From an uncultured Omnitrophica bacterium (lineage in GTDB: Bacteria > Omnitrophota > Gorgyraeia > JACQQV01), in the NCBI GenBank assembly GCA_947085655.1, contig CAMTXH010000022.1, positions 2,556 to 66,555 on the forward strand: a stretch of 64,000 nucleotides of DNA. Direction: 5' to 3'. Within the stretch, counting starts at the first letter, position 1. Each line of letters begins with the position of its first letter. The notes under the pieces were generated by a model. That model had not been told where the DNA came from. It saw only the letters and a list, made by a program, of their open reading frames with translations, and did not search any database. The position numbers and the translations under genes were made by a program. Positions 2,249 through 60,001 of this stretch are shown piece by piece.

Positions 2249-3667
2249 ATGAGAACCCTTTTAAAGAAAAACGGCTGGGGTCTTATCGAGATGCTGACGG
2301 CGGTCGCCCTGATTGCCCTATTGGTTGTGTTGTCTCTTCCGGTTCTCTCCAGGGTGATGGCGAATATGAGAGATCAAAGCGCCATTGCCTCCCTCTGGGC
2401 CATCCTTGAGGCACAGAAAAGCTACCGGGATGCCCAGACCCCGACGACTTATGCGAATACCATAGGAGATCTTGTAAATGACGAGTATCTTTCGGGAAAA
2501 TTTCTCAACGATTCTTCCTATGAGTACCGGCTTTCTGCCACATCGAACACCTTCACAGCAGAGGTGGTTCGGGATGGAATCATCCTTGCCTCAATCAGCC
2601 ACATTGGAAACCTCACGTATGGAGGAGGGGGCGCAGAGGACGGAGGCAGTGGAGGTGGCGACGGCGGGGGAGGGAGGGGAGGGGGGGAGCAAATCTCTTG
2701 TCCCTATCTTTACATCTGGAACGGCTTTGCCTTTGTCAAAGAAAATGACCTGAATCCTGGAGGAGACATCGAGAGAGGGTTGGGAGAATATACCGATTTT
2801 TATCTCCTCATGAAAAAGGTTGTCCCTCAAAGGAACCAATATCTTTTCCAAATCAGGGAAGAAGTGGAGGAGATCAGCTGGATCAACGCGGTCAGACTTG
2901 TTTCCATCGACCACCCCCGCTCGGTCCAGGTGGCTCCAAGCCCTGAAGGTGTGATTTGGACTTATCGGGAAAAAGATCTTCAAAAGCCCCTCTCGGTCTA
3001 CACGGACAAGGGAGAAGATGCGGCGCCTCTTCTCAGCGATGTGGGAAAGCGTTTCTATCATGGCCGGGCCGGGAACTACCTGATAGTGAACTTTGGGGAA
3101 GTCAGGGATCTTGAAAACGGCGTCAGACTCATTATGAGCGCCGATCCCATGATGATACCGGAAAAGAGCATCCATCTCTTCGCCTGGGTGGAGGAAAGAC
3201 GGTGGATTCCTGTCGCCCAAATTCATCCTCATGAGAAATGGGACCGGTGGGCAGTAGACCTGACAGAGATTGCGAGGAAAAGAAAGGGGCAGGCGCTTCT
3301 CTTGAAATTCGCTCTGACAGACGAGCATCGAATCGACTTTGCCATGCTCGACACTTCCCCTCAAGCGGAGGTTTTCGTCCGGGAGGTCCCTCCGCTCACC
3401 ATGCACCATTCGCGGAGAGGAGATGTCTCGGAGGCGTTGAAAAAGACAGACCAGGAAGTCACGGAATTGGTGAAAGAGGACACCCTGACCTTGACATTCA
3501 AGCGGACCCCTCTCCAAGGAGAGGCGAGAGACTTCCTTTTTGTCTCCACAGCCAGTTACAAGCCCCTCCCTCCTTCCCTGGGAGGTCTCCCCCAGAGGGA
3601 AAAGGAATTTCTTCTCTTTGATGCCGTGCGACGGTTCTTTTCACAAAAGGGAGAACAGCCCCTTTAA
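2249..3667 (+). CDS. Type IV pilin-like / pseudopilin-like protein with a Gly-rich linker and a large (~300 aa) C-terminal domain of unknown function
   Basis: N-terminus MRTLLKKNG|WGLIEMLTAVALIALLVV looks like a class III (prepilin) signal: Gly then cleavage, Glu at +5, hydrophobic helix. A Gly/Asp low-complexity linker (GGGGAEDGGSGGGDGGGGRGGGE) is followed by a long C-terminal domain with no motif I recognise. Confidence 0.7.
   Translation: MRTLLKKNGWGLIEMLTAVALIALLVVLSLPVLSRVMANMRDQSAIASLWAILEAQKSYRDAQTPTTYANTIGDLVNDEYLSGKFLNDSSYEYRLSATSNTFTAEVVRDGIILASISHIGNLTYGGGGAEDGGSGGGDGGGGRGGGEQISCPYLYIWNGFAFVKENDLNPGGDIERGLGEYTDFYLLMKKVVPQRNQYLFQIREEVEEISWINAVRLVSIDHPRSVQVAPSPEGVIWTYREKDLQKPLSVYTDKGEDAAPLLSDVGKRFYHGRAGNYLIVNFGEVRDLENGVRLIMSADPMMIPEKSIHLFAWVEERRWIPVAQIHPHEKWDRWAVDLTEIARKRKGQALLLKFALTDEHRIDFAMLDTSPQAEVFVREVPPLTMHHSRRGDVSEALKKTDQEVTELVKEDTLTLTFKRTPLQGEARDFLFVSTASYKPLPPSLGGLPQREKEFLLFDAVRRFFSQKGEQPL
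2336..2461. repeat. 126-bp block identical at nucleotide level to 3770-3895 (copy 1, inside pilin-like gene 1)
   Basis: Direct comparison of the two stretches shows a perfect 126/126 match. Flanking sequence diverges on both sides. Confidence 0.9.
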
Positions 3668-4236: not shown

Positions 4237-5967
4237 ATGCTCACTCTTTTCAAGCGTCCCAGCGTAAGATCCGTTTCCCTGATTGCCCTGGGAATCCTTC
4301 TGGTTTACGTCTTCTCCATCCGTCCGCTCACTCCTTTTGAAGCCCTCCAGTTCAGGATGCACGATTTCTTCTTTGTGAGCGCCCTAAAGGCGAAGCGTCC
4401 CCCTCCGGAACTGGATCAGATTGTTCTCGTGGCCCTGGATGACGAATCCTACACCAAGGTGAACGAACGCTGGCCCTGGGATCGCGCCGTCTACGCAGAA
4501 CTGGTCGAAAAACTTTCCCGTCAGAATCCGCGGTTGATCCTTTTGGATGTCGCTTTTGGGGGAGAACAGAACCCGGAAAGTGACACCCGCCTTGCCGCCG
4601 CCCTGGAAAAGGCGGGAAACGTCTTCATCGCTTATTATCTGGGGGATAATGGCAGACCGGTCTATCCTTTGGGGCGTTTTCGAAAAGCAAGTCTCGGCTC
4701 CGGATATGTCAACAAGCCTCTCGATGCCGATTTCAGTATCCGCCAGGCGCAACTCCTCCGCTGGACGGTTGACGGGGAGCTTCTCGACATGGCGCTGGAA
4801 CTAAAGGCCGCCTCCCACCTTTTTAGCGCCACGCCGGTCCCTTCCCGGGAGAAACAGATCATCCAGTTTCAAAAGAAGGAGGGGTCTCCTCCTCCACCTC
4901 TTCGCGGAACGGCTGTTCCGATTCCGGTCAGGAGGGATGGGACGGTCTTTCTGAATTACCAGGCCTCCCGTGAGGACTTTACGACCGTTCCGGCCTGGAA
5001 GGTCCTTGCGGAGGAAGTCCCCGAAGGGACTTTCAAAGACAAAATCGCCCTTTTTGGAATCACCAACCGGCTGATGCATGATATTCACCATTCCCCCCTC
5101 GGTTCCCTTCCGGGGGTCGTGATCTTTGCCAATCTCCTCCTCATGATTTTAAGCGGCGCTTATGTTTTTGAAGCGCCGCTTTGGGTCGACCTTTTCGTCC
5201 TCTCTTTTTTAGGGATGGCGACCGCCTACGCTACCTATCGGCTCACCCCCTGGCGGGGGTTCCTCTTTTTCTTCTACGCCGTCCTCTTCCTCCTCGGTGT
5301 CACCTTTTTCCTTTACCTCAAAAACATCCACTGGGATTTCGCCGGCACCCTCTTTGCAATGGTCTTCTGTTATCTGGGGATCACGTTTTACAAGTACTTT
5401 TGCGTTGTCCTTGAAAATGCGGCGCTCAAGGAGGAGGCCATCACGGACGGCCTCACGCAACTTTACACCTACCGCTATTTTGAATTGCGGCTCCGGAATG
5501 AATTCGAGCGGGCCAGCCGGTACCATGTCCCTCTTTCCCTTGTGTTTGTGGATGTGGACCACTTCAAAAGAATTAATGACACCTACGGACATGAGGAGGG
5601 AAACATCGTCCTCAGGGCAATCGCGGAGCTCCTCAGGAAACATTCCCGGCGGGTGGATCTGGTTGCCCGCTATGGGGGGGAGGAATTTTGCGTGATCCTA
5701 CCGCAGACAGAGCTGGAAGGGGCCGAGCACTATGCAGAGTTTCTCCGGAAAGCGGTTGAGGAAAGCCCCATTTCTCTCCGGGGGGGAGAAACGATCCGTG
5801 TCACCATCAGCTTGGGTGTTTCTTCCTATCCCCGTTTTCCCGTCACCTCAAGCGAGGAATTGGTCAAATTGACCGATCTGGGAGTCTACCAAGCCAAACA
5901 AACAGGCCGGAACCAGGTCTGCGTGGCGGGAAGCTCCTTCCTGAAAACCAAGGCGGAAAAACCTTAG
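4237..5967 (+). CDS. CHASE2 sensor domain-containing diguanylate cyclase (GGDEF)
   Basis: N-terminal signal/TM, then a CHASE2-like periplasmic region (VLVALDDESYTKVNERWPWDRAVYAELVEKL...LLDVAF). Several TM helices follow, then a C-terminal GGDEF domain with an intact RYGGEEF motif. Confidence 0.85.
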   Translation: MLTLFKRPSVRSVSLIALGILLVYVFSIRPLTPFEALQFRMHDFFFVSALKAKRPPPELDQIVLVALDDESYTKVNERWPWDRAVYAELVEKLSRQNPRLILLDVAFGGEQNPESDTRLAAALEKAGNVFIAYYLGDNGRPVYPLGRFRKASLGSGYVNKPLDADFSIRQAQLLRWTVDGELLDMALELKAASHLFSATPVPSREKQIIQFQKKEGSPPPPLRGTAVPIPVRRDGTVFLNYQASREDFTTVPAWKVLAEEVPEGTFKDKIALFGITNRLMHDIHHSPLGSLPGVVIFANLLLMILSGAYVFEAPLWVDLFVLSFLGMATAYATYRLTPWRGFLFFFYAVLFLLGVTFFLYLKNIHWDFAGTLFAMVFCYLGITFYKYFCVVLENAALKEEAITDGLTQLYTYRYFELRLRNEFERASRYHVPLSLVFVDVDHFKRINDTYGHEEGNIVLRAIAELLRKHSRRVDLVARYGGEEFCVILPQTELEGAEHYAEFLRKAVEESPISLRGGETIRVTISLGVSSYPRFPVTSSEELVKLTDLGVYQAKQTGRNQVCVAGSSFLKTKAEKP

Positions 5968-9636: not shown

Positions 9637-10518
9637 ATGGACCTTTCCATCGTCATCCCTCACCGGAATCGGAAAGACGCACTCAGGCGATGCCTCGGTT
9701 CCATCCCGCTTGCAGCCGGTTCCCTGTCCTATGAGACGATTGTGGTGGACAACGGATCAAGGGATGGAAGCCAGGAGGTGATCCGTCGCACTTTCCCGAA
9801 GGTCCATCTCCTTCAAAACCAAAATAACGAAGGGTTCAGCCGGGCGGTGAACCAGGGGCTCCGGAAGGCGGCGGGAAATTATCTTCTCTGTCTTAATAAT
9901 GACACCTTTCTCTTCCCCAACAGTCTTGTCTGTCTTTTATCTTTCATGGAGATGCACCCGGACGCCGGGATCTCGGGCGGAAAAATCTTCAATCGGGACG
10001 GAACGATCCAGCCCTCGGCCCGCTCCTTCCCCCGCCTTGAAACGGCGCTCTTCAACCGCTCGTCTCTTGCCACCCGTTTTTTTCCGAATAATCCCCTTTC
10101 CCGACGCTACCTTCTAAGCGACTGGGATCGTTGTTCCGTCAGAGAAGTGGATTGGGTTTCGGGAAGTTTCCTGATGATCCGGCGTTCTGTCTTTGAAAAA
10201 GTCGGTTTTTTTGACGAGCGCTTCTTCCTCTATTGCGAAGATGTGGATTACTGCCGCCGGGCGAAGGAGATGGGGTTTCGGGTTTACTACGTCCCGGATT
10301 CCCATATCATCCACGAAACGTCCTACAGCGGAAAAGGACTCTCCACCCTTTTTTTCCATCACCAGAGCATGTACCGGTTTTACAAAAAACACTACTCCGG
10401 GAATTTTTTGCGGGACACCCTGATTCTGGGGGGCGTGACGCTTCGATTTTTGGTGGAGGCGGGATCGCTCCCGGGAAAGAGACTTTTTTGGAAGGTTCGT
10501 CATGACGCCGCTCCTTGA
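9637..10518 (+). CDS. Family 2 glycosyltransferase (rhamnosyl/GalNAc-transferase-like)
   Basis: LSIVIPHRNR...VVDNGSRDGS...FLYCEDVDYCRRA is a GT-A fold with DxD-like and ED motifs. Confidence 0.8.
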   Translation: MDLSIVIPHRNRKDALRRCLGSIPLAAGSLSYETIVVDNGSRDGSQEVIRRTFPKVHLLQNQNNEGFSRAVNQGLRKAAGNYLLCLNNDTFLFPNSLVCLLSFMEMHPDAGISGGKIFNRDGTIQPSARSFPRLETALFNRSSLATRFFPNNPLSRRYLLSDWDRCSVREVDWVSGSFLMIRRSVFEKVGFFDERFFLYCEDVDYCRRAKEMGFRVYYVPDSHIIHETSYSGKGLSTLFFHHQSMYRFYKKHYSGNFLRDTLILGGVTLRFLVEAGSLPGKRLFWKVRHDAAP

Positions 10519-11326
10519 AGTATCCGGCCTTTCTAAGACATTTTATCCGACGCCCCCTTTTCTGGATGTGCTGCGCGGCCGCTTCCAAAAAAAAGCGGTT
10601 CCTGTCCTCCTCGACCTTGCCTTAACCCTTCATGAGGGAGAGCTGTATTGTCTTATGGGAGCAAACGGCGCAGGCAAAACCACCCTCCTCAAAATCCTCT
10701 GCGGTTTAATCCTTCCCGACACGCAGCGACTCCGGCTCTGCGGGGAAGAGCTCCCTCCCGGCCATCCGCGTCTTCGGGCTTCCTTCGGTCTGGTGACGGG
10801 AGAGGAACAAAGTTTTTACGGACGCCTGACCGGGAGGCAGAACCTGGAGTTCTTTGCCACTTTTCAGGGTCTCCCCCCAAAAAGAATCCGGGAATCCATT
10901 GAGGCCCTCTGCGAACTTTTCCGGATGGAAAATTATCTGGACAAGCCCTTTTTTGCCTATTCCACCGGCATGAAACAGCGTCTTGGACTTTCCCGCGGCC
11001 TTTTAGGCGATCCGAAAATTCTCCTTTTGGATGAGCCAACGCGGAGTCTCGACCCTGCGGCAGCCGGAGAGTGGCACCATTTCCTCCGCGACATCCTTCT
11101 TGAAAAGGAGAAAAAAACAGTTCTTTATACCACCCATTCCCTGGAGGAGGCGGAGCATTTCTCAAGCAGGATCGGGATCCTCTGCGGGGGAAAAATCGTG
11201 GCGGAGGGGGATCTGGGGACACTCAAACGAAAGGCGCACCTTTCGGAGGAAGCCACCCTTTACGACATTTTCCAGAAAATGACAGAGGGGATAAACTGTG
11301 TTTCAGAAACTCCTTGCCCTCTTTAA
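10502..11326 (+). CDS. ABC transporter ATP-binding protein (ABC-2 export type)
   Basis: Walker A GANGAGKTTLLK, signature YSTGMKQRLGL, Walker B ILLLDEPTRSLD, H-loop TTHSLEEA. Confidence 0.85.
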   Translation: MTPLLEVSGLSKTFYPTPPFLDVLRGRFQKKAVPVLLDLALTLHEGELYCLMGANGAGKTTLLKILCGLILPDTQRLRLCGEELPPGHPRLRASFGLVTGEEQSFYGRLTGRQNLEFFATFQGLPPKRIRESIEALCELFRMENYLDKPFFAYSTGMKQRLGLSRGLLGDPKILLLDEPTRSLDPAAAGEWHHFLRDILLEKEKKTVLYTTHSLEEAEHFSSRIGILCGGKIVAEGDLGTLKRKAHLSEEATLYDIFQKMTEGINCVSETPCPL

Positions 11327-12104
11327 AAGAGATTTCTTCATCACCTCAAGTTACAAGGTCAGCTTCATGATGTATTGGATTCATGCGCTGGCCATCCTTC
11401 TCCCCTTTTTCTTCATCGGACGGATGTTCGAGACCAGAAGTTCGCCCCACCTCCTTGCCTACGGCGGGCATTACTTTGCCTTTGTTTTGATCGGTCTCGG
11501 AGCACGGCGCTACCTCTCGCATGCCCTGCACAGTCTGGCGGGGACGGTCGGTGAAGAGCGGGGCTTGGGAACTCTGGAAACGCTCCTCGCAAGCCCCACT
11601 TCTTCCAAGACGGTTTTTTTTCTTCTTTCGGTTCTGAGTGTTTTCTACGCGGTGCTGAACCTTTTGTTTTACCTTTCCCTTGGGATTGTTCTCTTCCGGG
11701 TCCCGTTTCCGCACGTCAATATCCCCGCGGCGGTTGTTGTTTTGTTTTTGACCACGCTCAATTTTTTCTCATTCGGTTTTTTGTCCGCCAGTTTCATTCT
11801 CGTTTTCAAAAAATCGAGTATCATCGAGCCCTTCTTCGAGGGATTCTCCAGTTTCTTAGGAGGCGTTTATTTCCCGATCACCCTCCTTCCGGACTGGCTC
11901 GAGCGGGTGTCGGCCTTCATTCCGATGACGTATGTTTTGAGGGCACTGCGCCTTTCTCTTTTGAAGGGGGCGCCGTTGGGTACCCTCCAAGGGGACCTGG
12001 CCGCCCTTCTTCTTTTGACAGCGGTCCTCTTCCCGGTCAGTCTTTGGACCTTCGGAAAAGCGCTCCAGAAAGCGAAAAAGGACGGGAGTCTGGTCCACGA
12101 TTGA
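11298..12104 (+). CDS. ABC-2 family transporter permease
   Basis: 268 aa with about 6 predicted TM helices. It overlaps the ATPase gene end, as expected for a two-gene ABC-2 exporter. Confidence 0.7.
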   Translation: MFQKLLALFKRDFFITSSYKVSFMMYWIHALAILLPFFFIGRMFETRSSPHLLAYGGHYFAFVLIGLGARRYLSHALHSLAGTVGEERGLGTLETLLASPTSSKTVFFLLSVLSVFYAVLNLLFYLSLGIVLFRVPFPHVNIPAAVVVLFLTTLNFFSFGFLSASFILVFKKSSIIEPFFEGFSSFLGGVYFPITLLPDWLERVSAFIPMTYVLRALRLSLLKGAPLGTLQGDLAALLLLTAVLFPVSLWTFGKALQKAKKDGSLVHD

Positions 12105-12239: not shown

Positions 12240-13511
12240 ATGATCGAAAGAGTCGAGCGTCTGGGAGAGGAAGTGGAGAGCCAGTGGAAAAAAGAGGGAT
12301 ACGCCAAGGAGGCCTTTTCAGGAATCGCCCTTCGCGCCCTCCAAAAAAGCGGTATTCACCGCCATTTCTCGGTCGAAGAAGTTCTGCACTGGCTTGGAGC
12401 GCAAAAAGAGATCCCCGCACAGTTAAGCATGGAAAGAGACACCTTCGGGCAACCCCCCATCACCCTCTTCCGCCGTGACCGGTTTGTGATTGACATTTAC
12501 TTCTGGGTCACCTCCGCCAGCACCATTCACTCTCACACGTTCCAGGGTGCTTTTACGGTCCTTCAGGGAAAAAAACTTCAATGCCATTATGATTTCCGGA
12601 TCCGCGAAAATATCGAGGAGAATATCCTGATCGGCGATTTCTCCTTGGAGAAGGCGGTTTTCCTGAAGGAAGGAGATATCCAGGATATCGAATATGGAGC
12701 GAATCGGCCCACCCTGACCCATCAGGTGTTTCAAATCACCCAACCGGCCGTTACGCTCCTGGTCCGGTCACTCAATCCGGAAAAGACCAATTATATCTAT
12801 TTAAAGCCCCATCTCGGCTACCGGGAATTCCGTAACTTTACCCCCCTTGAGAGAAAACAGTTGGACACGTTGGAGATGCTCCATCGTATAAACCACCCCC
12901 TTGAAGACACCTTTTTAAAGTCCCTCATTTCAGAAATAGGAGATTATAAGGCGTTATTGTATCTCAAAGAGTTCTTTTTAGACACAGGGGACTGGCGTCG
13001 AATTCAGAAGGTTCTCGAAACCCTTCCCCGTTTCCGGAGGTGGGCCCCCTCCCTCGTGGAATCTTTTCGCACGATTGACGAGACAAGGGTCATGTGGACG
13101 AGTGTTTCCGGAGAAAAAGAAAGACTCCTGATGGGACTCCTTCACACCTTTGAGGAAAAAGAGAGCATCCTTCAGTTCGTGCGCCGTTATTTCCCGGAGG
13201 AAAACGCGGAGACCCTCATTTTGGAGGGACTAAAGAAGTTGATGGACCGGCAGGCCTTTCCCTTCGAATTGAACGAAACGGCCCTGGAGGTTTTGCGGCT
13301 CTCTCTTCGCGGCGATTCAGAGGAGGAAATCTGCCAGGAACTTTCAGACGCCTATCATCTCAAGAGTTCCGGGACACTCCGTCAAGAGGTGCGGGACATT
13401 CTCAACGAGATGCGCTCTAACGGACATCTCAAACCGCTCGTTTCCCCCTCGTCGACTTTTTCAGAAAAGAGACGATCCGGGCGTCCGGAACAAACGACAG
13501 TTCATAGATAG
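12240..13511 (+). CDS. Hypothetical protein with a possible cupin-like N-terminal region (IHSHTFQGAF...HYDF) and a helical C-terminal region
   Basis: 423-aa ORF with RBS AAAGGAGG 6 nt upstream and an extended -10 (TGaTATAAT) at ~12133-12143. I do not recognise a known family. It overlaps the 3' end of the HprK-like gene convergently by 83 bp. Confidence 0.5.
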   Translation: MIERVERLGEEVESQWKKEGYAKEAFSGIALRALQKSGIHRHFSVEEVLHWLGAQKEIPAQLSMERDTFGQPPITLFRRDRFVIDIYFWVTSASTIHSHTFQGAFTVLQGKKLQCHYDFRIRENIEENILIGDFSLEKAVFLKEGDIQDIEYGANRPTLTHQVFQITQPAVTLLVRSLNPEKTNYIYLKPHLGYREFRNFTPLERKQLDTLEMLHRINHPLEDTFLKSLISEIGDYKALLYLKEFFLDTGDWRRIQKVLETLPRFRRWAPSLVESFRTIDETRVMWTSVSGEKERLLMGLLHTFEEKESILQFVRRYFPEENAETLILEGLKKLMDRQAFPFELNETALEVLRLSLRGDSEEEICQELSDAYHLKSSGTLRQEVRDILNEMRSNGHLKPLVSPSSTFSEKRRSGRPEQTTVHR

Positions 13512-14381: not shown

Positions 14382-14525
14382 CTAACCGCACCTGAACTCG
14401 GGAATTTGTGGGGGCGTGAATCCAACGGAAGGGTCTTTCATCTCAACACGGCGAAGGATCGGTTTTTTATAACGCCTTTTGGGCGGCCCTTCTTTTTTGG
14501 CACTGGGTTTCTTCTTTTTCGCCAT
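14382..14525 (-). CDS. Unannotated small ORF: 46-aa highly basic peptide, a candidate precursor/substrate peptide
   Basis: Manual translation gives MAKKKKPSAKKEGPPKRRYKKPILRRVEMKDPSVGFTPPQIPEFRCG ending in TAG. A strong RBS GGAGGT lies 4-5 nt upstream of the ATG. It fits exactly into the 213-bp gap between the oxygenase-like and kinase-like genes. It is below the length cutoff of the ORF track. Confidence 0.5.
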   Translation of the reverse strand: MAKKKKPSAKKEGPPKRRYKKPILRRVEMKDPSVGFTPPQIPEFRCG

Positions 14526-14550
14526 CGTCACCTCCGGTTCATATTTCTTT

Positions 14551-15297
14551 TTATCGTATCAAAGGGGAAAAACGCTTGGCAAGAGAAATATTCGTGGTGG
14601 TCCGGAACCAAAAGACGCTGGAGTAGCGGCCGGGGTTTTGAAGGGGTGTCCGAATCTTTCCGATTCCGTGTAAAAATTCCCGTTTGACCTTCATGACAAG
14701 AAGTTTGTTGAAACCGGGGGTCACCCGAACGCGCGGCCTTGTCCAGTCCCCCAGATAAAGAGACCCCCCCGCCTCCCTCCTCCATCCTTTCGTTGCATAA
14801 TAGACCACGGTGAGGTGATGCTGGCTGTCAGTGTGAGGATTCTCCCAATCACCGGGGCCCATCCGTTTATGGTGCCCTCCGGTATAGCGAAGGGGCCTTG
14901 CGAATCCTGCCAACGCTGAAAGGTATCTTGAAAAATAACTCGAGAGGAAAAGAGTTTCGATCAAACGCCCCAGGACAAACCCTCTCCTCTCAAGGAGTTC
15001 CCACCGCCCTTCCCACTTACCCTGAACATGCTGCTCCCAGGCAGGGGACCACCGGTGAAGGCCGAAATCATCGTGCATCACCTTCCTCGGAGCGGATTGA
15101 AGTTCTTCATACCAAGTTTCGGCAATCTCGGGGTTCAGAAAACCGGGAAGGAAAATATAAGGAATGGGCCTTGAAGGTCTTTGAAAGGTCTCCCTGAGCT
15201 CCCGAAGAGTCCCTCTCCCTCGCCAACGGGGTGAAACAGACGCTTTGAAAAGGGCTTCTTCGTCCGAGGCCTTCCGGAGAAGGACAGAAACTTTCAT
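14551..15297 (-). CDS. 2OG-Fe(II) oxygenase superfamily protein (prolyl-4-hydroxylase/PhyH-like)
   Basis: Candidate facial triad HTD (NPHTDSQHH) and downstream His (REFLHGIG). Gly-rich strand GGSLYLGDW and an RYSS (R-x-S) 2OG-binding-like motif are present. Its start overlaps the PqqD-like stop by 4 nt. Confidence 0.55.
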   Translation of the reverse strand: MKVSVLLRKASDEEALFKASVSPRWRGRGTLRELRETFQRPSRPIPYIFLPGFLNPEIAETWYEELQSAPRKVMHDDFGLHRWSPAWEQHVQGKWEGRWELLERRGFVLGRLIETLFLSSYFSRYLSALAGFARPLRYTGGHHKRMGPGDWENPHTDSQHHLTVVYYATKGWRREAGGSLYLGDWTRPRVRVTPGFNKLLVMKVKREFLHGIGKIRTPLQNPGRYSSVFWFRTTTNISLAKRFSPLIR

Positions 15298-15587
15298 CGG
15301 GATCGCTGAATCAATCCCTCTTTTTTCAGGTCGTTTAAAAAAGAAAAGATTTCTTTTTGAACCCGTGATTCGAGAGTGTCAAATTCTTCGGCGATGGTCT
15401 TCACAATTCCCTGGCAGAGTCTCTGGCCATCCAAGAGTTCCCAAACGCGGCTCCCGACCTCCTCCACAAAATAAAACGGGCGGGTTTTGACCTGCTTGGG
15501 ACTGGTGGGGAGGAGGATAGACTCCCCTTTGATCCTCCGGTAAACCACGTCGGGATTTCGTTTGAAACGGTCATTGGGCTGAACCAT
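15294..15587 (-). CDS. PqqD family protein (RiPP recognition element-like peptide chaperone)
   Basis: 97 aa. RNPDVVYRRIKGESILL...FYFVEEVGSRVWELLDGQRLCQGIVKTIAEEFD matches the PqqD family pattern. RBS AGGAGG is 6 nt upstream. Confidence 0.8.
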   Translation of the reverse strand: MVQPNDRFKRNPDVVYRRIKGESILLPTSPKQVKTRPFYFVEEVGSRVWELLDGQRLCQGIVKTIAEEFDTLESRVQKEIFSFLNDLKKEGLIQRSR

Positions 15588-15621
15588 CTTACCTCCTTCT
15601 GATTTTCTGTCCCCCGTCTCC

Positions 15622-17199
15622 TTGACGACCTCTCACGCCTCTGTTAAACTGAATGGAGTGAAAAGACCCTTCCTCCTTTTTGTTCCGATCCTTCTCCTCG
15701 CCGTCTTCCTTCAATTCTTCCAGTTGGGAGAAAGGAGTCTCTGGGAAGACGAGGCCCAAGTCGCCTTAAAAGGGGAGTGGGACACCATTACGATCCTCGA
15801 CTACCAGAAAAATTTCCTTTTCAATATTATCTTATCAACTTGGACTCGCCTTGGCAAGAGCGAAGCTTGGCTACGAATTCCGTCGGTGCTCTTTGCCCTC
15901 TTTTCCCTGATCGCCTTCTACGAAGTCGGAAGGCGCCTCTTTTCTGAAAAAACGGCGCAAGTGGCCGTTCTCCTTCTTGCCCTCTCTCCCTTTTTCCTCC
16001 TTGAATCCCGGCAGGTCAAGATGTACAGTCTCGCCCTTCTATGTTCCCTCCTCAGTTTTTATTTCCTCCTTCTTTATCTGGAGAAAGGCCGCAGCGGAAC
16101 GCTCCTCGCCCATATCGGCATCTCCCTCATGGCCCTCTTCACTCATTACATGTTTTTCTTTTTTCTGCCCCTTGAACTCCTCTGGCTCTGGATCGCCACA
16201 AAAAAGAGGCGGGCTCTCTTAAAACGTTACCTCCTCGCCTGGTTTTTTCCCCTTCTTCTTTTCCTGGCGTCCATCAAACCTTTTTGGCGTCATTTGGAAA
16301 GTTTTTACTCGCTCTATCTCGATTCCGGCACCCCGATTTTGTTTACATTCCCTTTCGGGGCGGCCGGGAGAGCGGCCTTTCTCTATTATCTCTTGACAGT
16401 AGGGCCGACCTTCTTTCCGTGGAACTACGTCTGGGCCGGCGCCGGATGCCTTCTTCCGCTTATTGTCTTTTTTCAAATCTTCAGAAAACCGAGGCAGTGG
16501 CCTTTCCTGTGGATATTCCTTGCTTTCGTGTTTCCCGTTCTCCTCCTGTCTTTATTCCGGAATATGCAACCCCGGCACCTGTTCATCGCCCTCCCCTTTT
16601 ACGCTCTCGCCTTGAGCGCCGGGCTTTCGCAGCTTCGACCCCTGATAAGGGCCCTTGCCCTTTCGGGCATCCTTCTTATTCAAACAGTCGGCGTGGCCAA
16701 CTATTTTACCGGCCGTCAGTATATCTTCATCGCTCATCTGGAACCCTACCGTGAAATTGTTGACCTCGTCCAAAAAAACTTTCTACCGGGAGACCTTCTT
16801 TTTTATTCCCAGGACATCCCCTCCTTTGAGTTTTACTTCTACAAGTATTTTGAAAAAAAAGGGCCGAGGCGGAGACTTCACTGGATTGACAAGGAGGAGA
16901 GAATCCGGCGGTGGCGCCTGGAAGACCTGAATCAAAAAGTTCTCAAGGGAGTCAAGCGGATCTGGTTCATTGAAAGGCCACCCGGTCAAACGGTGGCAAC
17001 CATTCCTCTCTCAGATCCCGAGGCCCTCTACCGGGAAAATCTTGCGTTCAGGGCCATCCTGGACGGACGTTTCAAGCGGCTCGGTCGGTGGGGTTTTCTG
17101 AAGGATCCCGACATCCGGAAAAAGGAGAAATTCCTCAAGAAATTCTATCTGGAAGAGAGGATTACCGTCTCCCTCTACGACGTGACCGCCCCGCCATAG
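15622..17199 (+). CDS. GT-C fold membrane glycosyltransferase (family 39 / ArnT / PMT-like)
   Basis: Polytopic membrane protein. N-terminal FQLGERSLWEDEA...LFNIILSTWTRLGKSEAWLRIPSVLF resembles ArnT/PMT_2 family starts. The true start may be the GTG at 15658 (MKRPFLLF...). Confidence 0.7.
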   Translation: MTTSHASVKLNGVKRPFLLFVPILLLAVFLQFFQLGERSLWEDEAQVALKGEWDTITILDYQKNFLFNIILSTWTRLGKSEAWLRIPSVLFALFSLIAFYEVGRRLFSEKTAQVAVLLLALSPFFLLESRQVKMYSLALLCSLLSFYFLLLYLEKGRSGTLLAHIGISLMALFTHYMFFFFLPLELLWLWIATKKRRALLKRYLLAWFFPLLLFLASIKPFWRHLESFYSLYLDSGTPILFTFPFGAAGRAAFLYYLLTVGPTFFPWNYVWAGAGCLLPLIVFFQIFRKPRQWPFLWIFLAFVFPVLLLSLFRNMQPRHLFIALPFYALALSAGLSQLRPLIRALALSGILLIQTVGVANYFTGRQYIFIAHLEPYREIVDLVQKNFLPGDLLFYSQDIPSFEFYFYKYFEKKGPRRRLHWIDKEERIRRWRLEDLNQKVLKGVKRIWFIERPPGQTVATIPLSDPEALYRENLAFRAILDGRFKRLGRWGFLKDPDIRKKEKFLKKFYLEERITVSLYDVTAPP

Positions 17200-17204
17200 A
17201 AACA

Positions 17205-19094
17205 CTACGTCCCTTTTTCCGCCTTCTCCCCTTCGGGATAATACTTCCGGTAGCGGTAGTAATACGAAGAGCTCGGTTCCACTTCTATCGCCCGAATGTC
17301 GTTAAAGACCACCCCCAGAAGTTTTGCCTGGGCCGTGTCCAGCTGGGTCTTGGCCCGCTTGAGGGCATTCCGGGCCGTCCGTCCGGATTGGTATACGAGG
17401 ACAATTCCGTCCAGCTTTGGGGCAAGGATCAGGGTGTCGGTGACCGGAAGAACCGGGGGGCAATCGAAAATCAAAAAGTCAAATTGCGTTCTCAACGTCC
17501 GGATCAGTTCCTCCATCTCATGAGAAGCAAGAAGTTCGGGCGGGTTCGGAGGAAGATGTCCGGAGGTCATGAAATTGAGATAGCCGAGATGGGGGCTTTT
17601 CAAAGCCTCCTGCCATTTGACGTCGGCGACCAGAAGGTCTGATACGTTTTTGAGCGCCTGCTCATAAGAGACCGTTTTGGTCAGCACTTCAAAGAGTCCC
17701 GGTGTCCGTTCAAGGCCGAAGATTTCGTGAATCATGGGACGACGGAAGTCCACGTCGATCAGGAGGGTCTTTTTCCCCATTTGGGCGGAGGCGACCGCCA
17801 GATTCGCGCAGGTCAATGTCTTTCCCTCCCGGGGACCCGTGCTGGAGAGGGCAATGGCGAGCTGCTGCTTCTGGGGAAGGACCGAATAGATGGAAGTCCG
17901 GAGGGTATGGTACGATTCCGCCTCCGGAGAGCGGGGATCAAACTGGGTAACGAGTCGATACCGGGTCTCAGTCAATTTTTTTTCCTCACCCCCGATTCTC
18001 GGAAAAAGGGAAAACCGTTTTTTCTCCGCGGTATCGACCATATGGGGGATCATTCCCAACACCCCCACCCCCAGAAATGATTCGATATCTTCCACCACAC
18101 CGATGGAGGTATCCAGCGCCTCCTTAAAAAACGCGGCGATAAATCCGAGGAGAAGTCCCGAGCAGATTGCCAATACCATGCTCACCTTCTGATCTGTCTG
18201 TAGAGAAATGGAAGGAGGGGAGGCGTGTTCAAGGATGCGGACATTTCCTACATTTCCCGACTCCTCAATCCGCGACTCATTATACTTCTGCTTGAGCTGT
18301 GACACCAGATCTTGATTATCCCGGCGTTCCTTGGTAAGCCGAGAGGAAGTCAGCTCTTCCTCCGGGAGTTGTTTGAGTTTTTCCCCTGCAGAGGCAATTT
18401 GCTGGTTCAACCGCTCCACCTCCGGATGCTTTTCCGTGGCCCGGGCCAAGAGGTCTTCCCGTTTAAGCTCAAGGGCCATGACCGAACTCCTGATGTCTGC
18501 CACCTGATCCGCAAGGGGAGATCCTTCTTTAAACTGCCTCAACGCCTCTTCCGACTTGAACAAACGTTCTTCGGCTTTTTTCAATTCCTCCTCGATAAAG
18601 ACACGGACCGCTCTTTTTTCGCGGCCGGTCTCTTCAAGGTTGTACGCCACGTAGGCCTTGGCAACCGCATCCGCAATCGGTTTAGTCTCCTCGGCATTCG
18701 GACCGGTAACCGTGATTCGAATCACATTGGTATCCCCAATCTGAAGTGCGCTGACTTTTCTCTGAATTCCATGAACAATGTCTTCCCGTTCGAGGAGATC
18801 CGTGACCCCTCCCAGCCGGCCCAGCGCCTCAGCCGCCTTTTCCGCCACCGGGAAACTTTTGATGATTTCCAGCTGCGACTGGATCAGGTTCCCCAAAGCA
18901 TACGCATACCCCTCCCCGATGACCGGGACTCGCTGGATGAATTTGACTTTGAGATTGGATTGGTAGACCGGCTTCTGAGAAGAAATGAAATAATAGGAAA
19001 TCCCGATCACCATGCAGAAGATGATGAAGATGGTCACCTTCCGCTTCCGGAAAATCCGGTAATAATCCCGCAGATTCAGTTCATATTCTGCCAT
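17205..19094 (-). CDS. Polysaccharide chain-length determinant / bacterial tyrosine autokinase (Wzc/ExoP-like BY-kinase)
   Basis: N-terminal Wzz-like domain with TM helices and coiled coil. C-terminal P-loop domain (GPREGKTLTCANLAVASAQMGKKTLLIDVDFRRP) and a Tyr-rich tail SSSYYYRYRKYY. Confidence 0.85.
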   Translation of the reverse strand: MAEYELNLRDYYRIFRKRKVTIFIIFCMVIGISYYFISSQKPVYQSNLKVKFIQRVPVIGEGYAYALGNLIQSQLEIIKSFPVAEKAAEALGRLGGVTDLLEREDIVHGIQRKVSALQIGDTNVIRITVTGPNAEETKPIADAVAKAYVAYNLEETGREKRAVRVFIEEELKKAEERLFKSEEALRQFKEGSPLADQVADIRSSVMALELKREDLLARATEKHPEVERLNQQIASAGEKLKQLPEEELTSSRLTKERRDNQDLVSQLKQKYNESRIEESGNVGNVRILEHASPPSISLQTDQKVSMVLAICSGLLLGFIAAFFKEALDTSIGVVEDIESFLGVGVLGMIPHMVDTAEKKRFSLFPRIGGEEKKLTETRYRLVTQFDPRSPEAESYHTLRTSIYSVLPQKQQLAIALSSTGPREGKTLTCANLAVASAQMGKKTLLIDVDFRRPMIHEIFGLERTPGLFEVLTKTVSYEQALKNVSDLLVADVKWQEALKSPHLGYLNFMTSGHLPPNPPELLASHEMEELIRTLRTQFDFLIFDCPPVLPVTDTLILAPKLDGIVLVYQSGRTARNALKRAKTQLDTAQAKLLGVVFNDIRAIEVEPSSSYYYRYRKYYPEGEKAEKGT

Positions 19095-19096
19095 TT

Positions 19097-20146
19097 TTAC
19101 TCCTGAGTGATTTCGGAAACGTCAACGGGTCTTTTGATGTGTACGAGCGGTTCCTGCGCCAGGTCAATCCGCTTGATCTCCGAGAGGCGGTTTCCGCTTC
19201 CGTCCAGATAGATGTCGAGGACTGGAAGAAGCGGAAAGTTTTTGTTGACCTTCACCACCCGGCCGATTTCCTTGGTGTTCAACTGCACATAACTTCCGAT
19301 CGGGTAAATGGAGAGCTCCCGAACCAAAGCCTTCAGAATCTGGATGAGACTCGCCTTGAATTGGCTCCCCATGGAATAGGCAATTAACTTCATCGCCTCA
19401 TCCGGCGCGTGCCGTTTCCGGTAAGGGGGGGAGTGGGTTAAGGCTTCATAAACATCCGCGATGGCGATGATCCCCCCGAATTCGGTCACCTGGTCCTCCC
19501 GGAGCCCCCTGGGATAGCTGGTACCGTCCAGCCGCTCATGCTGGTGGGAAATCGCATCCAGAATCACCCGGTCCAAATCTTTCATATTCTCGAGAACCTG
19601 AACGGTATAGATGGGGTGTTTTTTGACAATCTCCATCTCTTCATCGGAGAGAGAAGCCGCCTTTTCCGTGAGCGCTTTCGGAACCTTCGCCATTCCAAGG
19701 TCATGCACCAACGCGGCTAGACCCAGTTGTCGGAGTTCCCCGTCGTTCAAACGGAGGCCCATCCCGACCTTGATGGAAAAAATCGATACATTGACACTGT
19801 GGGGATAAAGATAGTCTTCTTCCGACCAAGAAAATGTCAAGGTCAGAAGGGATTCTCCCCCCATTTTCAAAACGGAGATGATCCGATCGATCACTTCCTG
19901 ACCTCCGGCAAGGTCCGGGATAGGTCCTTTCTCCGCTTCTTCGAATTTTTTCCGGATCCAGTTCAGCGCCTCCTGATAGAGGGCCACCTCGCCTGTCTGC
20001 ATTGGAGAGGGCAGGATCTTCTGAGAAATGGCAGGACTCGGAGGAAGCGAAAAAGGGGGAGCGATCTCGGGGGTCGCTTGCTCCTCTTTCGGCGGTGGGG
20101 CCTTTGGATTGCCGTCGGGTCCCAAGACATCCGAAAGCCGGACCAT
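19097..20146 (-). CDS. HD-GYP domain protein (putative c-di-GMP phosphodiesterase)
   Basis: ALVHDLGMAKVP (HD) ... HHERLDGTSYPRGL (GYP). Its start overlaps the upstream ATPase stop (TGATG). Confidence 0.85.
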   Translation of the reverse strand: MVRLSDVLGPDGNPKAPPPKEEQATPEIAPPFSLPPSPAISQKILPSPMQTGEVALYQEALNWIRKKFEEAEKGPIPDLAGGQEVIDRIISVLKMGGESLLTLTFSWSEEDYLYPHSVNVSIFSIKVGMGLRLNDGELRQLGLAALVHDLGMAKVPKALTEKAASLSDEEMEIVKKHPIYTVQVLENMKDLDRVILDAISHQHERLDGTSYPRGLREDQVTEFGGIIAIADVYEALTHSPPYRKRHAPDEAMKLIAYSMGSQFKASLIQILKALVRELSIYPIGSYVQLNTKEIGRVVKVNKNFPLLPVLDIYLDGSGNRLSEIKRIDLAQEPLVHIKRPVDVSEITQE

Positions 20147-20955
20147 CAGCCCTCTCCCTCGATGCTGGCCATCGCCTCTTCAACGATCTTGTTCGTCACC
20201 TCGTTGGCATGGTGGACATACCCTGTAAAAAGACTCATGTCACAAATTTGATTGATCCGGCGGGGAATCCCGCCCGTCGCCTGTGTGATCACCCGCAATG
20301 CCTCTTTGGTAAAGAGGGGTTCCTTCCGTCCCGCCACTTGAAGGCGACGGCTGATATAACCCTCGGTCTCCTCGGTGGTCAGAGGTCCCAGATGAAAGCG
20401 CATGGCGATCCGCTGGGCAAAGGCCTTGTTCATCGCCACCTGCTCCCGGAGTTCCGGCTGCCCAATCAAAAAAAGGGTGACCATGAATTTATCCTCCAAC
20501 TGGAAATTGAGGAGAAGACGGATCTCCTCGAAAATATCCGGGTTTTGAATCACATGGGCTTCGTCGATAATCACGACCGTTTCCCGGCCGTCCCGGAGAT
20601 TGTTCGCCAGGATCTCCTGCATCTGAAAAAGGACATCGCTTTTATGAAGCGGCGGATTCGTAACGCCGAGCCCGTACAGAATCATCCGGAGCATTTCAAG
20701 GGGATCGAGGCGCGGGTTGGTGATATAGGCGATCCGGTGTCCCGACTGTTGCAGTCCCCGGATGACCGCTCGGGTGAGAAGGGTCTTGCCGCACCCGAAA
20801 ACGCCCGTCATCATTCCGGCCCCTTTTCGGGTCTTCACCACATAATAGAGCCGCGTCAACCCTTCTTCATGCTGTTTGGAGAGATACAAAAAACGGGGAT
20901 CCGGCGTATTTTCAAACGGCGGCTCTGTCAGTCCCCAATGCGCTTCATACATGGC
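20146..20955 (-). CDS. GspA/ExeA-like AAA ATPase (PEP-CTERM/EPS-associated ATPase-like)
   Basis: Walker A GVFGCGKTLL and Walker B VVIIDEAHV. The ORF track extends it to 21030, but the likely start is MYEAHWGLTEPPF, which sits right after the FabL-like stop. Confidence 0.7.
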   Translation of the reverse strand, partial: AMYEAHWGLTEPPFENTPDPRFLYLSKQHEEGLTRLYYVVKTRKGAGMMTGVFGCGKTLLTRAVIRGLQQSGHRIAYITNPRLDPLEMLRMILYGLGVTNPPLHKSDVLFQMQEILANNLRDGRETVVIIDEAHVIQNPDIFEEIRLLLNFQLEDKFMVTLFLIGQPELREQVAMNKAFAQRIAMRFHLGPLTTEETEGYISRRLQVAGRKEPLFTKEALRVITQATGGIPRRINQICDMSLFTGYVHHANEVTNKIVEEAMASIEGEG

Positions 20956-20957
20956 CG

Positions 20958-21770
20958 TTACCCAATGATATCCTCTCCCCCGTCCACACCGATGACATTG
21001 CCGGTGACCCAATACGTTTCTTCCAGGCAAAGCACACTCACCGCTTGCGCTACATCCTTCGGTCTTGTGATCCGACCCATCGGATTGCGCGCCTTGGCGA
21101 TTTCAAGCATCTTGTCGCTTCCCGGAATCTTCCTGAGGGCCGGTGTATCAGTCACCCCTGCCCGGACACAGTTGGCGGTAATCCCAAGGGGTGCGAGTTC
21201 CAGTGCCAACTGCCGGATGTGCGATTCGAGCGCCGCCTTGGCTGCGGAGACCGCCCCGTAGGTCGGCCAGACCCGTGTCCCGCCGGAAGAAGTCATTGCA
21301 AAAATCCGGCTCCCCTTTCCGAGGAGTTTCCGCTCAACCATCTCCTGAACCCAATAGACAAGACTGTGCGCCATCACATCCACGGTCATCTCCATCTGCG
21401 GCTGGGTGAGGGCGCCGTTTTCCCCTTCGGCAAAATAGGGCTTTAATGTCCCGAAGGCGAGTGAGTGAAAAAAAACCCGGACATAAGGGGTGCGGGCTCC
21501 TTTCAACCTCTCCTGAACCGCATCAAGAACCTCTTTTCGCTTCTCAGGGTCTGCAGCGTTCACGTTGAAGAAAAGGGCCTTCCGCCCCTTGGTTTGGATC
21601 TCCTTGACAATCCGCTCCGCGTTCTCGAGAGTCTGCTTCCGGTCAAAATGGACACCGAAAATATCCATGCCCCTGCCTGAAAGCTCCAGGGCAAGGGCCT
21701 CTCCGAAGCCGCTGGAGGCCCCCAGAATCAGGGCCCATTCGTCTTGGTATTGGGGGGGCTTTAATGTCAT
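20958..21770 (-). CDS. Enoyl-[acyl-carrier-protein] reductase, FabL-like SDR
   Basis: SDR Rossmann LILGASSGFGEALA and catalytic YGAVSAAKAALESHIRQLALELAP (Y-x6-K, like FabL/FabI). It sits at the end of the fab cluster. Confidence 0.7.
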   Translation of the reverse strand: MTLKPPQYQDEWALILGASSGFGEALALELSGRGMDIFGVHFDRKQTLENAERIVKEIQTKGRKALFFNVNAADPEKRKEVLDAVQERLKGARTPYVRVFFHSLAFGTLKPYFAEGENGALTQPQMEMTVDVMAHSLVYWVQEMVERKLLGKGSRIFAMTSSGGTRVWPTYGAVSAAKAALESHIRQLALELAPLGITANCVRAGVTDTPALRKIPGSDKMLEIAKARNPMGRITRPKDVAQAVSVLCLEETYWVTGNVIGVDGGEDIIG

Positions 21771-58110: not shown

Positions 58111-58504
58111 CAGTAGAGTAGACCTGTAAGCCGAGTTCTGTCCTCCGCCACGATTCATGGCGGAGAGGCGGTCATCTCTCTTGTCCCGGTGTTGCCACCG
58201 GGCTCCAGCGACCATACCCACCTCGCCTCCCGTGTCTGGGATTCGGACGGGCCGCCCTTCATTCCTTAGGAACAGGCAGAGGTCTATTGGGTCTTGCTCC
58301 GCGTAGAGATTGCCCGTTTCACCTCCCCGCCAGAGAACTGCGGCGGGGAACTCGTCTCTGTTGCTCTAATCCTTCCGTCCGCCAAGATTCGCGGCGGACG
58401 GAGGCGGGTGTTACCCGCTACGCTGCCCTCCGGAGCTCGGACTTTCCTCCCGCTCCGCCACACATCGTGGCGGATGGCGGGCGACCGCCAGGTCTACTCT
58501 ACAG
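58111..58504 (-). ncRNA. rnpB: RNase P RNA (bacterial type A)
   Basis: The minus strand contains AGGAAAGTCCGAGCTCCGGAGGGCAGCGTAGCGGGTAACACCCGCC (P4/GGAAAGUCCGGGCUCC-type core) and ACAGAACTCGGCTTACAGGTCTACTCTACTG at the 3' end. The P1 helix is CAGTAGAGTAGACCTG / CAGGTCTACTCTACAG. Confidence 0.8.
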
Positions 58505-59664: not shown

Positions 59665-59708
59665 TACACCTTACACCTTTCGCCTGACACTGCTTTAATG
59701 GTGGGCGC

Positions 59709-59785
59709 AATAGGGCTCGAACCTATGACCTCTGCGATGTGAACGCAGCGCTCTAACCAACTGAGCTATGCGCCCCTATGGGCCC
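59709..59785 (-). tRNA. tRNA-Val (anticodon CAC), CCA encoded
   Basis: GGGCGCATAGCTCAGTTGGTTAGAGCGCTGCGTTCACATCGCAGAGGTCATAGGTTCGAGCCCTATTGCGCCCACCA folds as a cloverleaf with a perfect 7-bp acceptor stem, a T-loop TTCGAGC and anticodon loop TTCACAT. Confidence 0.85.
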
Positions 59786-59929
59786 ACCATGATTCGCTCC
59801 TCGCCGGGGGCCCAGCCCCGGCTGCGGGCGGCCTGACTCACTGACGCTGCTCCCATAAGGTCGCGGCTTTTCATCCACTGGATGCGCTCGTCAGGCTTCG
59901 AATCCTGGGAAACGGGCCAGGTACGATCA

Positions 59930-60001
59930 TGGGCCCACCAGGATTCGAACCTGGGACCAAGAGATTATGAGTCTCCTGCTCTACCGCTGAGCTATGGGCC
60001 C
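59930..60001 (-). tRNA. tRNA-Met (anticodon CAT; elongator Met or tRNA-Ile2 lysidine-type), no encoded CCA
   Basis: GGGCCCATAGCTCAGCGGTAGAGCAGGAGACTCATAATCTCTTGGTCCCAGGTTCGAATCCTGGTGGGCCCA has a 7-bp acceptor stem, an anticodon loop CTCATAA and a T-loop TTCGAAT. Confidence 0.8.

Follow-up and report, generated by a model that had tools for sequence, protein, structure and literature searches.

The closest described system to the gene cluster analyzed here is that of the linear polyphosphorylated peptides (LPP) of Bacillota. LPP belong to the peptides that are made on the ribosome and modified after translation (RiPPs); they are encoded in capsule loci, whose HprK-like kinase polyphosphorylates Ser3 of the precursor (Popov et al., Nat Commun 2026, PMC13381572). 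More generally, HprK-type kinases phosphorylate RiPP precursors in a setting that depends on a RiPP recognition element (RRE) in both LPP and paeninodin systems, and the discrete RREs of lasso and LPP systems recognize the motif [Y/W]xxPx[L/V/I/F/A] (PMC13381572). Here, we describe a 64,000-nucleotide stretch of an uncultured Omnitrophica bacterium (contig CAMTXH010000022.1, called the window below), in which a small open reading frame (ORF) on the minus strand most probably serves as the precursor gene of a rare RiPP cassette, with the sites of modification predicted from its sequence.

The conserved gene set comprises a discrete PqqD-type RRE, the peptide, an HprK/ScmC-type P-loop kinase, a protein in which a cupin is fused to a second RRE (cupin-RRE), an ABC-2 transporter, a family 2 glycosyltransferase (GT2), and a membrane glycosyltransferase of the GT-C type (PMT_2); the window bears a 2-oxoglutarate (2OG)-Fe(II) oxygenase in addition (Table 1). 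Common to LPP and this cassette are a linear precursor with a Y-x-x-P-x-[L/V] leader, a discrete PqqD-type RRE, an HprK-type kinase, the lack of a macrolactam cyclase, a conserved N terminus followed by a highly variable C terminus, and a glycosyltransferase-rich polysaccharide locus. The likeness extends to the hydroxyl of T37, which lies 18 residues after the leader tyrosine (Tyr+18) and thereby matches the spacing of the phosphorylated Ser3 of LppA, although it is not conserved across the cassette peptides. Nevertheless, the cassette is not a member of LPP. The SpI (SipW-like) peptidase LppS, the NTP transferase LppN, and the MsbA-like exporter LppD have no counterpart among its genes and neighbors, whereas the two-gene ABC-2 exporter, the cupin-RRE fusion, the 2OG oxygenase, and PMT_2 are foreign to LPP. 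Only the YxxPx[L] part of the leader is shared—the LPP remainder VLxHQxIxFETxxS is absent—, the tails count 7 to 16 residues as opposed to about 45 in LPP, and the host belongs to an uncultured lineage instead of Bacillota.

Paeninodin-type phosphorylated lasso peptides likewise combine a lasso PqqD-type RRE and an HprK-like kinase with a [Y/W]xxP leader motif. The cassette, in contrast, bears neither cyclase nor B2 protease, and the C-terminal residue of its peptide is not Ser; it does not appear to be a lasso cluster. The third system to compare is SynChlorMet (Scm), as the kinase falls into the Pfam family ScmC (PF27840) and the RRE also matches ScmD. However, the scores remain far below the equivalog cut-offs (34.7 bits versus 125 for ScmC, 27.9 versus 100 for ScmD), the radical SAM/SPASM partners ScmE and ScmF are missing from the cassette, and the tails are not Cys-rich. 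In the curated sense, the cassette is thus not SynChlorMet, on which a literature search found nothing.

The ORF extends from an ATG at 14525–14523 to a TAG at 14384–14382 and encodes 47 residues (MAKKKKPSAKKEGPPKRRYKKPILRRVEMKDPSVGFTPPQIPEFRCG). Chance alone produces many ORFs this long: 145 that reach 30 residues or more overlap the 14 kb here, and size by itself is no evidence of a gene. The initial annotation of the window had described an unannotated, extremely basic peptide of 46 residues with a strong ribosome-binding site, sitting in the only gap of the cassette. The ORF itself is real, but its true length is 47 residues and it lies on the minus strand. The strong ribosome-binding site is indeed there, and the ORF does occupy the sole real gap of the minus-strand operon, 25 nt past the oxygenase stop and 44 nt ahead of the kinase ATG; farther upstream, the PqqD gene overlaps the oxygenase start by 4 nt. 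The peptide contains 15 Lys and Arg residues and four Asp and Glu residues, which corresponds to a pI of 10.6 (10–11.4 across the peptide family), and its last 17 residues are, as had been noted, Pro-rich (five Pro) with a Cys-Gly end. The word unannotated holds only insofar as the protein is nameless, for gene finders have called it in a public protein collection (P0248 is the exact 47-residue protein, P0001 an allele). A second precursor copy was sought in the window and in related loci, and none was found.

A search with the peptide against 5.8 billion proteins returned one match, P0001, which has the same 47 residues save Q40T, I41F, and E43D and stems from assemblies 99.9% identical to the window. 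The distant loci were found via the neighboring oxygenase and kinase genes and not via the peptide. In the same collection, the oxygenase has only three other clusters with 45 to 50% identity—four clusters in all, which marks the cassette as very rare. The kinase search gave 86 relatives, to which a metagenome scan added 80 more kinase loci; a scan of genome contigs using the oxygenase alone gave 132 pattern matches, of which none was confirmed. Looking for small ORFs beside PqqD-like or HprK-like genes, as the initial annotation had advised, proved fruitful: every close-clade locus bears a small ORF directly 5′ of the kinase gene, and eight further distinct peptides occupy this same position. 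They include the peptides of loci L012 (MTMRKKKKPAVKKGTPSKKRYEKPILRRVEMRDPAVGLAAPPQFMCG), L006 (MIKKKTSQTKRENPRRKRYKRPILRRVEMKVPSIGFTSPTFEID), L009 (MTRKRTSPDKKKLQAKKHYKRPLLRRVEVKTPSIGMTQQTTY), L010 (MTRTEKKAATASKKNAQAKKRYKKPLLRRVEMTIPYVGFTAPKTIDPPTSGV), L175 (MRKKKAPGTKKETSRKKRYKKPVLRRMEMKVPYVGFARTSPDICL), L011/L095 (MMKQKENRAKKREFRKKRYRKPLLQRLNVEITPLATVQAGGPPPLTV), and L096 (MKKRKNKPKKKYEKPVLQKIALEQTATAGEVTPPFTV). Several of the homologous ORFs were missed by gene finders. The cassette also illustrates that a gene cluster can hinge on an ORF under the usual cut-off of 60 residues. A GGAG(G) site is found 5 to 9 nt upstream in all eight aligned homologous ORFs, and alignment scores of the close-clade peptides lie 15 to 21 standard deviations above those of shuffled sequences. 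The upstream gene order varies (PqqD–oxygenase in the window, oxygenase–PqqD in L006 and L009), but the peptide always abuts the kinase.

A codon comparison had likewise been advised. Across the 35 leader codons, Nei–Gojobori counts yield proportions of synonymous differences (pS) of 0.5 to 0.8 versus nonsynonymous proportions (pN) of 0.16 to 0.37; for the 13-codon motif RYKKPILRRVEMK, the values within the close clade are 0.3 to 1.0 versus 0.03 to 0.14. In the tail, which forms the putative core, pN is about equal to pS, at approximately 0.5 to 0.6. This shows that the leader—the first approximately 35 residues—is under purifying selection, and that the last 7 to 16 residues are free to vary. 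The frame is conserved at the protein level, because the leader amino acids are kept while synonymous sites are saturated. The peptide ORF is a real, conserved gene.

The layout of the peptides is shared throughout the family. About 18 Lys/Arg-rich residues are followed by Y-[K/R/E]-[K/R]-P-[I/L/V]-L-R-R-[V/M]-E-[M/V], a P-x-[V/I]-G junction, and a tail which differs between homologues in both length and sequence. The leader contains [R/H]Y[K/E][K/R]P[I/L/V]LRR, and the segment Y19-K-K-P22-I-L24 of the window peptide fits the consensus recognized by the discrete lasso and LPP RREs, which makes it a predicted docking site. The Lys/Arg-rich N-terminal half, initially called leader-like, thus turns out to be a conserved leader with a YxxPxL recognition motif. 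The junction reads PSVG, PAVG, PSIG, or PYVG in the close clade and PDIG in L013.

On the level of strains, the differences between the genomes are confined to a stretch of this cassette. Between the window and L001, 12 mismatches occur in 20,144 aligned bases, all of them within 14397–15790, and five of the 12 fall into peptide codons 40 to 43, all nonsynonymous. All ten coding changes between the two are nonsynonymous (10/10): besides the three peptide substitutions given above, they affect the PqqD protein (R75G), the oxygenase (S20F), and PMT_2 (L18A and T57A). Four other assemblies also encode the TFPD core and carry the other variants in mixed haplotype combinations, together with three added synonymous sites. 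None of these five assemblies (L001–L005, all 99.9% identical to the window) differs from it outside this 1.4-kb block, and the rest of each alignment, 8 to 19 kb, is identical. The peptide core is the most differentiated spot of the region, which is consistent with the core being either selected or exchanged. That tails are swapped between strains suggests that the product acts outside the cell, in antagonism or recognition. In any case, four core codons replaced between otherwise identical genomes represent a natural experiment on RiPP core diversification.

Among the enzymes, the discrete RRE has its best NCBIfam match in lasso_PqqD_Bac (E = 1.7e-11, below the cut-off of that model). The kinase shows a kinase fold and retains its Walker A motif and a GDD motif. 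The oxygenase belongs to the families PF13640 and PF13661 and has weak PDB sequence matches to prolyl 4-hydroxylases, its nearest solved relatives; H155-x-D157, H210, and R224 are invariant in four orthologues, so that its catalytic residues are intact. It is an accessory member of the cassette, because the 6.3-kb contig L010 lacks it and a DUF6445 protein takes its position in L011; no significant similarity was found between this protein and the window oxygenase, and an equivalence of the two is not claimed. The initial annotation had pictured the peptide as flanked by an oxygenase and a kinase. Kinase and PqqD protein are constant neighbors; the oxygenase is not, and the cupin-RRE protein, PMT_2, and the ABC-2/GT2 partners had been missed. 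Orthologues of cupin-RRE, ABC ATPase, ABC-2 permease, and GT2 recur beside the kinase, the ATPase and permease being conserved in L006 and L011/L095 with 61 to 73% identity. PMT_2 is a neighbor in L010, L008, L007, L011, and L006, i.e., in every locus extending far enough.

The most unusual member is the 423-residue cupin-RRE protein, whose gene is convergent with the peptide operon. Its predicted structure, built with 58 relatives (pLDDT 92.1), suggests a cupin fold with a 3-His metal site formed by H97, H99, and H161, which are invariant in cupin-RRE relatives. The recognition domains of the cassette are similar to TfuB1, TbiB1, and PqqD. For the N-terminal domain, no Pfam or NCBIfam model matches, and a PDB sequence search with the entire protein gave only a weak match, to TfuB1. 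The family comprises 1,591 representative clusters (E ≤ 1e-3), with no characterized member in the library searched, and includes fusions with JmjC, LanC-like, leucine carboxyl methyltransferase, and TPR domains. The cupin resembles thiol dioxygenases (the cysteine, 3-mercaptopropionate, and mercaptosuccinate enzymes, ADO, and the plant cysteine oxidases), to which it is 12 to 18% identical; it differs by its fusion to an RRE and by the fact that half of the associated peptides are Cys-free. A literature search found nothing on a thiol or cysteine dioxygenase with a RiPP, nor on a cupin with an RRE. The scan for cupin-RRE loci used a 13-sequence alignment, narrowed from 58 proteins that were too diverse. 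Out of 79 genome loci with this family, one (L016) also has kinase and PqqD genes. Similar peptides were sought in these 79 loci with a strict regular expression, which gave one spurious match, and with a leader hidden Markov model, which gave nothing below E = 1. The peptide family is hence much narrower than the cupin-RRE enzyme family.

Acidobacteriota metagenome-assembled genomes (MAGs) hold a small ORF directly downstream of cupin-RRE (L018 1565–1834, L019 6307–6498, L021 6380–6643, and L024 6398–6664, all on the plus strand), encoding repeats of the QPSPG(G) type behind an acidic leader (RIEDLPASDxEL), with no Cys. The surroundings of this pair in L024 are unrelated housekeeping genes (CobN, Rieske/cytochrome b), so that the two genes look like a unit of their own. 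A loose resemblance to these QPSPG repeats is the sole hint that the cupin of the cassette might act on the conserved P-x-[V/I]-G motif.

From these elements, the following biosynthesis can be proposed. Residues 1 to 18 would form a Lys/Arg-rich stretch ahead of the docking motif, and Y19-x-x-P22-x-L24 would dock on the discrete PqqD-type protein and probably also on the second recognition domain. Because there are two recognition domains, one of them fused to the cupin, each enzyme could reach the same leader. The P-loop kinase would phosphorylate a hydroxyl near the leader/core junction, for which T37 is the best candidate owing to its LppA-like spacing. The prolyl-hydroxylase-like oxygenase may hydroxylate a residue in the Pro-rich tail, and the 3-His cupin would perform an O2-dependent oxidation—in the window presumably of Cys46, the sole thiol available in the peptide, to a sulfinic acid. 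The ABC-2 transporter would export the product, which GT2 and PMT_2 may glycosylate at the outer face of the membrane. As no cyclase is present, the product is expected to be linear, and as no leader peptidase was found among the genes scanned, it may retain its leader or lose it to a host enzyme. The initial suggestion that the peptide is a substrate of the flanking enzymes thus gains support from its constant kinase and PqqD neighbors, its YxxPxL leader, and its hypervariable tail, with the oxygenase demoted to an accessory role. More tentatively, and with the balance leaning against it, the cassette could represent a RiPP class not described so far, with the thiol-dioxygenase-like 3-His cupin-RRE fusion as its signature enzyme. 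This enzyme would here be combined with an HprK-type kinase, a prolyl-hydroxylase-like oxygenase, and a GT-C glycosyltransferase, and the product would be exported, linear, cationic, oxidized, phosphorylated, and glycosylated, with a short tail under diversifying selection between strains.

Several points weigh against a RiPP precursor modified in this way. Every chemical step is deduced. No single hydroxyl is conserved: the Tyr+18 position is Thr (in five peptides), Ala (L012, L175), or Val and never Ser, and in L012 the entire tail is devoid of Ser and Thr. Cys is found in only four of the nine cassette peptides (window, L001, L012, and L175), the other five being Cys-free, and the cupin-RRE gene is kept beside Cys-free peptides in L006, L010, and L011; thiol oxidation therefore cannot be its general function. 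The acidobacterial members of the family also adjoin Cys-free peptides. The oxygenase is not universal among the cassettes, and L009 possesses it next to a tail without Pro. Neither kinase nor RRE reaches the curated cut-off of any named NCBIfam family. Among the genes scanned there is no leader peptidase; more specifically, the scanned window ORFs include no lasso cyclase, B2 protease, signal peptidase, NTP transferase, or cassette radical SAM enzyme. Lastly, the exopolysaccharide locus around the cassette, and not the peptide, could be what PMT_2 and GT2 work for.

Four other explanations have to be weighed. A lasso precursor would be cut before G35, whose amine would be joined to E43, resulting in a nine-residue macrolactam ring with a tail of four residues. 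The best NCBIfam match of the discrete RRE is in fact a lasso PqqD chaperone, the leader bears a YxxPxL-type motif, and, counted from the conserved Gly, the peptides of the window, L001, L006, and L010 are acidic at position 8 or 9. However, the scanned ORFs of the 64-kb window and of the related loci yielded neither an asparagine-synthetase-like cyclase nor a transglutaminase-like B2 protease. In L009 and L012, no residue past the Gly is acidic, and the next-to-last position of the leader would be taken by Ser, Ala, or Tyr instead of Thr. A tail of four residues is moreover too short for threading. Overall, a lasso precursor is very unlikely. Similarly improbable is a scaffold in the manner of PQQ or mycofactocin, from which C-terminal residues are excised and glycosylated to yield a small cofactor-like product. 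Such a scaffold would agree with the PqqD-type chaperone, the short C terminus, and the best NCBIfam match of GT2, MftF (mycofactocin glycosyltransferase), albeit partial and far below the cut-off; but the cassette holds neither a radical SAM enzyme nor a peptidase, and a cofactor precursor is expected to conserve its C terminus, which is here the most variable part.

The initial annotation had itself offered a different possibility, namely a free-standing small basic protein—nucleic-acid-binding, ribosomal-protein-like, or histone-tail-like—that is hydroxylated by the neighboring oxygenase. This would account for the extreme basicity and for an oxygenase from prolyl-hydroxylase-like 2OG families, which include ribosomal prolyl hydroxylases. 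Yet, with a single match among 5.8 billion proteins, the peptide is without relatives beyond the cassette, it stays with kinase and RRE where the oxygenase is missing, it carries a predicted RRE-binding motif, and its hypervariable, unconserved C terminus is unfit for a structural or nucleic-acid-binding protein, so that we give this possibility little chance. The least credible case is that the region is only the 5′ leader of the kinase gene, i.e., an attenuator or upstream regulatory ORF with a functionless product, which the initial annotation had named as a finding that would overturn its proposal. The ORF does lie closely upstream of the kinase start, and the ribosome-binding site of the kinase gene, as read from the sequence, is weak. 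But the conservation of the frame at the protein level largely refutes this case, the RNA here shows no more folding than shuffled sequence does (z = +0.16), and the ORF keeps its position though the upstream gene order changes.

With the RiPP precursor as the preferred reading, the locus would add a new precursor family and enzyme set for linear, kinase-dependent RiPPs and extend this group outside Bacillota. It also makes a large uncharacterized enzyme family testable against a defined substrate of 47 residues, and this cupin-RRE partner family may prove to define a class of its own.

Table 1 Features of the peptide cassette and its surroundings in the window.
Feature	Position	Strand	Evidence or remark
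Precursor peptide gene	14382..14525	minus	Translation; eight further distinct homologues upstream of ScmC kinase genes; leader dN/dS ~0.1–0.3
Shine-Dalgarno GGAGG	14531..14535	minus	5 nt 5′ of the peptide ATG; read from sequence
Promoter-like site TTGCCA-18-TACGAT, with TG (putative)	14553..14582	minus	Inside the oxygenase gene at its 3′ end, immediately 5′ of the peptide ribosome-binding site; consensus scan only
Predicted RRE-binding motif Y-K-K-P-I-L, codons 19–24	14454..14471	minus	Y[KRE][KR]P[ILV]L in all relatives
Junction motif P-S-V-G (P-x-[V/I]-G), codons 32–35	14421..14432	minus	Conserved, between leader and variable tail
Hypervariable putative core, codons 36–47, FTPPQIPEFRCG	14385..14420	minus	Includes T37 (14415–14417) and C46 (14388–14390)
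Strain-variable block, codons 40–43	14397..14408	minus	QIPE in the window, TFPD in five other assemblies
HprK/ScmC-type P-loop kinase, 302 residues	13429..14337	minus	Pfam ScmC (PF27840); best NCBIfam match ScmC
2OG-Fe(II) oxygenase, prolyl-4-hydroxylase-like, 248 residues	14551..15297	minus	PF13640, E = 8e-8
Discrete PqqD-type RRE, 97 residues	15294..15587	minus	PF05402, E = 1.3e-10
Cupin-RRE protein, 423 residues: N-terminal thiol-dioxygenase-like 3-His cupin, helical linker, C-terminal RRE	12240..13511	plus	Predicted structure; C-terminal PqqD Pfam match
ABC ATPase (10502–11326) and ABC-2 permease (11298–12104), putative exporter	10502..12104	plus	Pfam and NCBIfam matches
GT2 glycosyltransferase	9637..10518	plus	PF00535, E = 1.5e-24; 67% identity in L011/L095
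PMT_2 (GT-C) membrane glycosyltransferase	15622..17199	plus	PF13231, E = 1.8e-13; divergent from the operon
Wzz/GNVR tyrosine autokinase	17205..19094	minus	
HD_5 phosphohydrolase	19097..20146	minus	
AAA_22 ATPase	20146..21030	minus	

Beyond the close clade, distant kinase relatives (L013/L014 and L016) adjoin radical SAM genes, and leader peptides with Y-K-K-P-x-L occur beside such relatives. L016 (3721–9304 of the Deltaproteobacteria MAG contig JACQMB010000035.1) combines three radical SAM genes with genes for PqqD, cupin-RRE, and an ScmC kinase; no peptide with the cassette-type leader was detected in this locus. Wider ScmC loci (L097, L098, L100, L108, L113, L114, L126, and L153) encode Cys-rich peptides upstream of the kinase with the related leader ..Y-x-K-P-x-[LI]..V-x-L-x-P-E-E-A-V-L-G-A-C-K.., often with a GS end and in L113 as two tandem copies.

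In the window itself, exopolysaccharide-type genes flank the cassette at 17205–21030 on the minus strand, a context that resembles the one reported for LPP clusters. Most other scanned ORFs are housekeeping genes (a fab/plsX operon, SMC, RecG, RecJ, SecDF, EF-G, FtsK, PNPase, RpoD, and DnaG), and 58111–58500 and 59699–60001, both on the minus strand, bear a class A RNase P RNA (189 bits), tRNA-Val(CAC), and tRNA-Met(CAT). A c-di-GMP-I-GGC riboswitch at 2061–2159 on the plus strand (61.8 bits versus a gathering score of 59) precedes an ORF of 472 residues (2249–3667) without a Pfam match, and a CHASE2-GGDEF diguanylate cyclase gene lies at 4237–5967.

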